Shown here in pieces: positions 63,001 through 64,000 of a stretch of DNA of 64,000 bases. The stretch is taken from the NCBI RefSeq assembly GCF_041248615.1, contig NZ_CP158425.1. One strand, given 5' to 3'. A program made the position numbers. This DNA comes from Escherichia coli (lineage in GTDB: Bacteria; Pseudomonadota; Gammaproteobacteria; Enterobacterales; Enterobacteriaceae). Each line of letters begins with the position of its first letter. The first letter of the stretch is position 1.

Positions 63001-64000
63001 TAATCGGATGATTGGCATAGGTTCGAATGATGCCCATCCACGTCTTAAAATCTACTGACATATTAAGACGCTCACCGACAATTGAAATATTGGTGAACCC
63101 CTCGCTCTCCATTAAAGAGAGCGTCTGTAACTCTTTCGTTGCGTCAAAGCCAACCGTTTTATATTCCCGATTTTGACGCCCCACACTCTTTGGTGATGGG
63201 ACGAACAGCCCGAGCCGCATCAAAGCAATAGACTGCACCGTACGGTTGCTGTTAGGACGCAAAATGATGTCTTTACCTGATTCTTTCTCTCTAACAGAGA
63301 AAGCCCTGGTGACCAGGTCCTGCTGCTCAGTATCTTTCTCTTTAGTCATAATTAGTTATCACTGAATGTGTAAACAGATTGGTGAATAGTAAGCCCCAGC
63401 GAACTCTATGTCACTGGATGGATCATTGTGATGATCCATATCTGTGCATAAGTTCTACCTAAAAAAACGACTCCACTCATTAAAACTTGGCAAAAACTCT
63501 TTGCATACAATGACCTGCAACTCTTATCAACAACGGATCAGATCAAGTTAAAAAGATCTAATGAAAAGTCACTACTATTGTCGCTCTGATCACTACTGAT
63601 GTCAAAAAACTCATTACCAACGTTATAATAATCACTACTAATGTCAAAATAATCACTACTGTTGTCACTGATCACGTCTCAGGCCTTGTGCCGTCTGGCC
63701 TGGAGGCAGCGGGGATCTCTTTTGATCTATCAGGAACACTAAGGTACTAATTATTGGAACTACCTTGTGGAAAATGGGGATAAATAAATGCTTAGTTCTT
63801 ATACAGGTCTCAACTTGCCTCCCTGATAAAAACTGTCGTCAAAGCTAAATCACAGCCACAGGCATTTTCGGTGGATAAATTTTTGAGAAATAGAAGCATA
63901 CATGCAGACTCGTGTCGCAAGTAATTGAAAGTAATGATTTATTTAAATAATGCGAGTCACCTTACCTCACAGTGGAAGTTTAAGTCTAACCTCACTACCA

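Follow-up and report, generated by a model that had tools for sequence, protein, structure and literature searches.

Our analyses support the identification of the region just upstream of repHI2 as a replication origin of known type. In the stretch of Escherichia coli DNA examined here (64,000 nucleotides, hereafter the window), this region very probably combines origin and control functions for RepHI2A, the theta replicon of an IncHI2 plasmid, within the P1/RepFIB/pMT1 iteron family, its functional unit extending over approximately 63350-63783. The initial annotation had placed the origin at 63400-63670, upstream of the rep gene. That position holds, repHI2 having its start codon at 63349 and the span lying a short way upstream of it, but the limits given do not: the origin elements run to about 63783, so that the span is some 120 bases too short and leaves most of the P1-homologous core (63676-63783) outside. 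Consequently, a minireplicon cloned from 62200-63700 would probably cut off the DnaA boxes and the heptamer zone that make up this core. Accurate origin limits matter for replicon typing, for the construction of mini-replicons and for plasmid-curing or incompatibility strategies, given the major part that IncHI2 plasmids play in carrying mcr and other genes for multidrug resistance. The main practical yield of this study is a corrected origin map; it opens no new question.

The bases 62200-64000 are a 100% match, over 1801 bp, to the E. coli plasmid p14408_M1 (NZ_LT599829.1), and about 1120 plasmid records (1122 counted), from Escherichia, Salmonella, Enterobacter, Citrobacter and Klebsiella hosts, share at least 99% identity with them. 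The plasmid p14408_M1 is typed as IncHI2A, MOBH and MPF_F, in agreement with the link to an IncHI backbone proposed previously. The replicon is not new, as the RepHI2A replicon of R478 has already been published (Page et al. 2001; Gilmour et al. 2004); the window carries this very replicon, with no material difference. In the passages of PMC4980987 and PMC8490738 that cite Page 2001 and Gilmour 2004, RepHI2A of R478 is presented as an autoreplicative, iteron-type region.

The features discussed below are the following, conservation being assessed by reference to a Citrobacter freundii plasmid (the Citrobacter relative), with 75% identity at the origin.

60435-62164: putative copy-control array of about 30 iteron-like sites, 12 palindromic pairs accounting for most of them, located past the repHI2 stop codon
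62261-63349, minus strand: repHI2, a 362-aa ORF coding for the predicted iteron-binding initiator, of the P1 RepA / RepFIB RepA family
63386-63414, minus strand: promoter-like GTGACA-17-TACTAT, a consensus match only, 37 nt upstream of the repHI2 ATG
63417-63438: pair of GATCs (63421, 63433), 12 bp apart and abutting the -35, within an inverted repeat ATGGATCAT/ATGATCCAT in this plasmid
63443-63451, minus strand: rep-proximal DnaA box TTATGCACA, a perfect match conserved in the Citrobacter relative
63452-63523: A+T-rich leader segment with a T7 run, AT 60-70%, poorly conserved
63524-63532, plus strand: DnaA-box-like TTATCAACA, with one mismatch at a conserved C, kept in the Citrobacter relative
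63536-63558: three GATCs (63536, 63541, 63555) adjoining iteron 1, those at 63536 and 63555 conserved in the Citrobacter relative
63564-63668, minus strand: five iterons in strict 21-bp phase, minus-strand core TGACANNAGTAGTGAT
63605 to 63577, minus strand: promoter-like TTGACA-17-GACAAT within the iterons, at a position homologous to the P1 repA promoter
63670-63673: GATC at the junction of the G+C-rich spacer and the first iteron, found at the same junction in SSU5, pMT1 and three RepFIB replicons
63676-63712, minus strand: G+C-rich spacer, where AT drops to 27-37%, aligning with the spacer of P1, SSU5 and RepFIB
63713-63762, minus strand: five heptamers at 10-13 bp spacing (TAGTTCC, TAGTACC, GTGTTCC, TAGATCA, GAGATCC), homologous to the P1 Dam heptamers
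63766-63783, minus strand: tandem DnaA boxes TTATCCCCA and TTTTCCACA, homologous to the P1 left-end pair TTATCCACATTATCCAC
63991-64000, minus strand: the only part inside the window of a second, distal origin module, namely the edge of its last iteron; the module continues beyond the window end

The gene adjoining the origin is annotated in identical plasmids as 'IncHI-type plasmid replication initiator protein RepHI2'. In tblastn comparisons the protein is 41% identical to P1 RepA (E = 3e-61) and about 50-53% identical to RepFIB initiators, so that the 'P1/RepFIB-style' label of the initial annotation is right at the protein level. The nearest initiators outside the IncHI2/Citrobacter group are the RepA proteins of the SSU5 phage-plasmid (55%, tblastn) and of Yersinia pestis pMT1 (56%), while the Rep of the Citrobacter freundii plasmid is 86-88% identical. 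An alignment of seven initiators contains many invariant columns. HMM searches with RepHI2 alone gave zero matches to Pfam or NCBIfam models, and sequence searches of the PDB with the protein and with the seven-sequence profile returned nothing meaningful; five of the seven aligned homologues match Pfam Rep3_N (best E = 1.6e-11) and Rep3_C. The AlphaFold (AF2) model obtained from the same alignment is of low confidence (pLDDT 56), and its fold matches at E <= 0.001, all with low TM scores, are domains 2-3 of RctB from V. cholerae and two chains of the F-plasmid RepE. RepHI2 may accordingly be viewed, with due caution, as a candidate dual winged-helix initiator of the Rep_3 class; at its C-terminus it has an acidic tail, about 60 aa long, which is absent from P1 RepA. 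Neither a second repHI2 homologue nor a second origin core is present within the 64-kb window. In the IncHI2 records, tblastn points to a second place elsewhere on the plasmid.

Read toward repHI2 on the minus strand, the origin consists of the tandem DnaA boxes, the five heptamers, the G+C-rich spacer and the five iterons. This is the module of the P1 oriR/incC/repA/incA system, with tandem DnaA boxes, about five heptamers at approximately 11-bp spacing, a GC spacer and five 21-bp iterons; the P1 record K02380.1 places the DnaA site at 729-746, the Dam heptamers at 751-801, the five incC iterons at 846-949, a repA promoter inside the iterons, repA from 1006 and incA at 1866-2150. RepFIB replicons likewise possess a DnaA box, five GATC heptamers at 11-bp spacing, a GC spacer and iterons, although in the three replicons compared the module is single and the iteron sequence is different. 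In a multiple alignment the module of the window falls in register with P1 oriR, with the two modules of SSU5 and with the two modules of the Citrobacter plasmid. Furthermore, local alignment of 63712-63783 to the P1 oriR core gave a score of 49, the shuffled sequences averaging 14.7 (z = 14.8, equalled in 0 of 1000 shuffles); the z value was 23 with the distal SSU5 core, 10.2 with Salmonella RepFIB and 8.7 with Klebsiella RepFIB, the alignments being weak with the proximal SSU5 core (z = 4.7) and with the E. coli RepFIB core (z = 2.1). The P1-like architecture proposed earlier stands as regards family and iterons, but not as regards arrangement, the order of the elements within 63400-63670 differing from that of P1.

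The tandem boxes at the iteron-distal end of the core, one of them (TTATCCCCA) with a single mismatch and the other (TTTTCCACA) fitting TTWTNCACA, align with the annotated P1 boxes at 729-746 of K02380.1. Together with the first two heptamers they are 100% identical in the Citrobacter relative, the whole 63766-63783 stretch being conserved. Identity to this relative is 82% over the proximal core and 83% over the proximal iterons, 73% and 75% over the distal core and distal iterons, respectively, and 37% over the spacer between the two modules.

The iterons were correctly recognized in the initial annotation as five units of 21 bp, of which four are good and one is degenerate. The core ATCACTACTNNTGTCA occurs at 63568, 63589, 63631 and 63652 with 0-2 mismatches, whereas the third iteron (63606-63626) is degenerate in this plasmid and has a good copy in the Citrobacter relative. 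All five align in register with those of P1, SSU5 and the Citrobacter relative. At up to three mismatches the iteron motif has 40 matches in the whole window against 5.45 expected, an approximately sevenfold enrichment, and 34 of the 40 flank repHI2.

The 214-bp leader separating the iterons from the repHI2 ATG distinguishes this replicon from its relatives. P1 has an equivalent gap of 56 bp; that of SSU5 is about 44 bp, and in SSU5 and pMT1 the proximal iterons adjoin repA without a long GATC-bearing leader. From the iterons toward the gene, the leader contains three GATCs, TTATCAACA, the A+T-rich stretch, the T7 run, the perfect DnaA box, the GATC pair and the promoter-like site. Thus, relative to P1, it has five extra GATCs and a separate promoter-like site; in the corresponding interval P1, RepFIB and SSU5 have zero or one GATC. 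This promoter-like site (63414 to 63386) sits 150 bp beyond the one embedded in the iterons, and the Citrobacter relative retains both of its hexamers (GTGACA-17-TAGTAT).

The number of GATCs had previously been given as five. Six lie wholly within 63400-63670, starting at 63421, 63433, 63536, 63541, 63555 and 63588, a seventh straddles the end of the span (63670), and two more lie just outside it (63714 and 63724); the five non-iteron sites of the span fall inside the leader. This is the densest GATC cluster of the window: in 20000 random placements, P was about 0.05 for seven GATCs in 271 bp and about 0.002 for nine in 310 bp. The Citrobacter relative shares eight of the 12 GATCs found upstream of repHI2, including four of the five in the leader. 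Both members of the pair next to the -35 are kept while the surrounding segment is 59% identical and the palindrome is lost, which points to selection on those GATCs themselves. For the same reason, namely that only the GATCs of the palindrome survive in Citrobacter, we set aside the reading in which the 63417-63438 inverted repeat is an operator for RepHI2 dimers, of the kind found at F repE. The IHF consensus WATCARNNNNTTR has no match in 63340-63800.

The GATC content of the heptamer zone was compared across the family. At 63713-63762 only the last two of the five heptamers contain GATC (63724 and 63714), in place of the P1-type cluster of about five GATC-bearing heptamers. The zone has five GATCs in P1 and 5-6 in RepFIB; SSU5 and pMT1 have six in the distal module and three in the proximal one, IncHI2 has three in the distal module and the two of the window in the proximal one, and the Citrobacter plasmid has two in either module. 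The feature behind Dam dependence in P1 is thus retained only in part here.

From the observed anatomy, the homology to P1 oriR and the pattern of conservation, a mechanism can be outlined whose steps are drawn by analogy with P1, as known in part from PMC4980987 and the annotation of K02380.1. RepHI2 would bind the five iterons at 63564-63668, and the host DnaA would act on the tandem boxes at 63766-63783 and on the box at 63443-63451, and the duplex would presumably open at 63713-63762, where the heptamers separate the distal DnaA boxes from the iterons. Transcription of repHI2 might start from the 63414-63386 site, from the iteron-embedded 63605-63577 site, or from both. The palindromic array at 60435-62164 would take the role of incA, copy number being limited through titration of RepHI2 or handcuffing of the origin. 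Methylation of GATCs probably modulates the system via Dam and SeqA, with the two heptamer GATCs, the three next to iteron 1 and the pair spaced by 12 bp at the -35 as candidate targets.

The dependence of initiation on Dam admits an alternative. The REPI replicon of pColV-K30 is of the RepFIB type. Among the titles listed in PMC2865523, one states that P1 requires methylated DNA (Abeles & Austin 1987) and another concerns the roles of adenine methylation in REPI (Gammie & Crosa 1991). Because relatives use methylation, Dam dependence is plausible here as well, although apparently weaker than in P1; because the canonical GATC heptamers are reduced in number, an absolute requirement such as that of P1 stands at roughly even odds. 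The enrichment and conservation of GATCs are only suggestive of a need for Dam. The competing explanation accepts a P1-type origin and is limited to the Dam question, being compatible with the RepHI2A reading: initiation would be independent of Dam, and the GATCs would have no role beyond sequestration by SeqA after replication or a methylation-sensitive control of the repHI2 promoter. We give this slightly less than an even chance. Three of the five heptamers of the proximal core are devoid of GATC in both IncHI2 and Citrobacter, against the 5-6 GATCs of P1 and RepFIB, and the best-conserved extra GATCs are the 12-bp pair just upstream of the -35, whose flanks are not kept. SeqA, moreover, is described in the relevant part of PMC2691817 as binding clusters of hemimethylated GATCs with particular spacings, a preference that fits the same explanation. 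Conversely, both heptamer GATCs, like the one where spacer and iterons meet, occupy positions conserved across the family, and the methylation needed or used by P1 and pColV-K30 REPI, as far as the above titles indicate, argues against complete independence.

Given that SeqA binds spaced GATC clusters, control of repHI2 expression, or sequestration, by Dam and SeqA is a reasonable inference from the sequence. The partial loss of heptamer GATCs together with the conserved promoter GATCs hints that methylation control differs from that of P1. A tentative and rather improbable scenario would combine the tandem duplication of the module in the IncHI2/pMT1/SSU5 branch with decay of the ancestral proximal heptamer GATCs in IncHI2 and Citrobacter and with the gain of new, conserved GATCs in the leader, the control exerted by Dam and SeqA having shifted from opening to initiator expression or sequestration. 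If true, such a shift would represent a variant control logic for the P1/RepFIB family.

A second alternative concerns the place of opening, which could lie on the rep-proximal side, within the A+T-rich leader (63452-63560); on this view the P1-like core (63676-63783) would be dispensable or vestigial. The leader is indeed 60-77% A+T, and the stretch in question is flanked by the three GATCs and TTATCAACA on one side and by the DnaA box at 63443-63451 on the other. That box, which bears out the earlier claim of a DnaA box, is one of two perfect TTATNCACA sites in the 64 kb and the only one in the origin region, the count over the whole window being no higher than expected by chance; the leader combines it with five GATCs, four of them conserved. 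P1, too, has a second DnaA site, described in PMC4980987 as a DnaA-box array, between its iterons and repA. However, the A+T-rich stretch itself (63471-63520) shows the weakest conservation in the leader (46% identity), compared with 77% for 63441-63470, where the T7 run and the DnaA box lie, and 82% for the 63676-63783 core. The invariance of the distal DnaA boxes and first two heptamers, and the fact that the core beyond the iterons is what aligns with the annotated DnaA and Dam segment of P1, also make opening in the leader unlikely.

The sequences flanking the proximal module raise a third possibility, namely that the active origin is the distal duplicate module or the 81-bp array, 63564-63783 acting mainly as an operator or incompatibility element. 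The distal module is complete beyond the window (approximately 7790-8010 of L001) and is accompanied by one more palindromic pair (to about 8154). A second upstream module is present in IncHI2 and not in P1; SSU5 and pMT1 show the same tandem duplication upstream of repA. On the other side of the gene, 12 palindromic pairs of the format TGACAACGGTAGTGA, 8-10 nt, TCACTACCGTTGTCA occupy 60435-62036, and TRF detects an 81-bp period with 10.3 tandem copies at 60944-61772, an array ending 489 bp from the repHI2 stop codon. In number and distance these repeats of about 81 bp match the array published for R478, given as 'twelve 80-81 bp iterons' some 500 bp from repHI2 in PMC8490738 and PMC4980987, with reference to Gilmour 2004 and Page 2001. 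The relevant passage of PMC8490738 puts the R478 81-bp repeats beside the initiation codon, whereas in the present sequence they are on the stop-codon side.

In favour of an origin elsewhere than in the proximal module, the distal module has three heptamer GATCs against two and is itself conserved at 73-75%, the distal copy of SSU5 and pMT1 retains the full set of six GATCs against three in the proximal copy, and cloning, as reported in part of PMC8490738, suggested functional activity of the 81-bp iterons. Nevertheless, the proximal module surpasses the distal one in conservation (82-83%) and in its DnaA boxes, a single module next to rep suffices for P1 and RepFIB, and the array sits beyond the gene, where P1 has incA, a negative control locus. 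The P1 counterpart comprises nine single iterons in 285 bp, compared with 1.7 kb of palindromic iteron pairs here. We consider it quite unlikely, on balance, that the proximal module is not the active origin.

Finally, a chance assemblage of motifs in A+T-rich intergenic DNA, devoid of origin function, has a negligible probability, for although seven GATCs in 271 bp are of borderline significance and TTATNCACA occurs at chance frequency, coincidence is ruled out by the sevenfold enrichment of an iteron motif confined to the flanks of repHI2, the nucleotide alignment to P1 oriR, the selective conservation and the adjacent homologue of P1 RepA.

Two minor features of the region were set aside. 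A 45-aa ORF at 63538-63675 consists of iteron sequence and was not taken as a gene, and the sole match of an Rfam scan of 60000-64000, to mir-71 within the repeat array, was attributed to chance.

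The origin module of the IncHI2 replicon, comprising DnaA boxes, heptamers, a GC spacer and iterons, was found to be duplicated in tandem, and further iteron-like sites lie on the opposite side of the initiator gene repHI2. The elements surrounding this gene were located as follows:

63990-64354 (window-equivalent; 7790-8154 of L001, a record reaching past the window end), second, distal occurrence of the complete origin module, of which only 63991-64000 fall within the window
63605-63577, minus strand, promoter-like match TTGACA-17-GACAAT, composed of iteron sequence
62152-62183, terminator-like hairpin, separated from the upstream repHI2 stop codon by ~80 bp
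60435-62164, array past the stop-codon end of repHI2, ~30 iteron-like sites

The distal module contains heptamers with three GATCs, the GC spacer and five iterons, and the same L001 interval holds one further palindromic iteron pair. This tandem duplication is shared by a related Citrobacter plasmid, the phage-plasmid SSU5 and Yersinia pestis pMT1. The promoter-like match occupies a position homologous to that of the P1 repA promoter, and use of this candidate would give repHI2 a leader of ~220 nt.

The sites of the array are chiefly arranged as 12 palindromic pairs inside 81-bp units, which are repeated in 10.3 tandem copies (60944-61772). In PMC8490738, the repeats of the IncHI2 plasmid R478 are placed adjacent to the initiation codon, whereas in the window sequence the array lies beyond the repHI2 stop codon. 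As the hairpin itself is made by a palindromic iteron pair, it could act at once as a terminator and as a RepHI2 binding site.

RepHI2 (362 aa; 62261-63349, minus strand) matched no model among the Pfam and NCBIfam HMMs, while homologues 40-55% identical to it do match Rep3_N and Rep3_C. Its C terminus is extended by an acidic stretch of ~60 aa that is absent from P1 RepA. In tblastn searches RepHI2 matched two places per IncHI2 plasmid record, and therefore a second, diverged homologue exists elsewhere on the plasmid, none being present inside the 64,000-nt window; a candidate for this homologue is the second IncHI2 replicon gene, called repHI2C in papers.

The replicon is bordered on both sides by large genes for Ig-like-domain proteins (n=2):

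57762-60182, plus strand, left gene, 806 aa, oriented toward the replicon
L001 8258-10714, minus strand, right gene, ~818 aa, oriented away from the replicon
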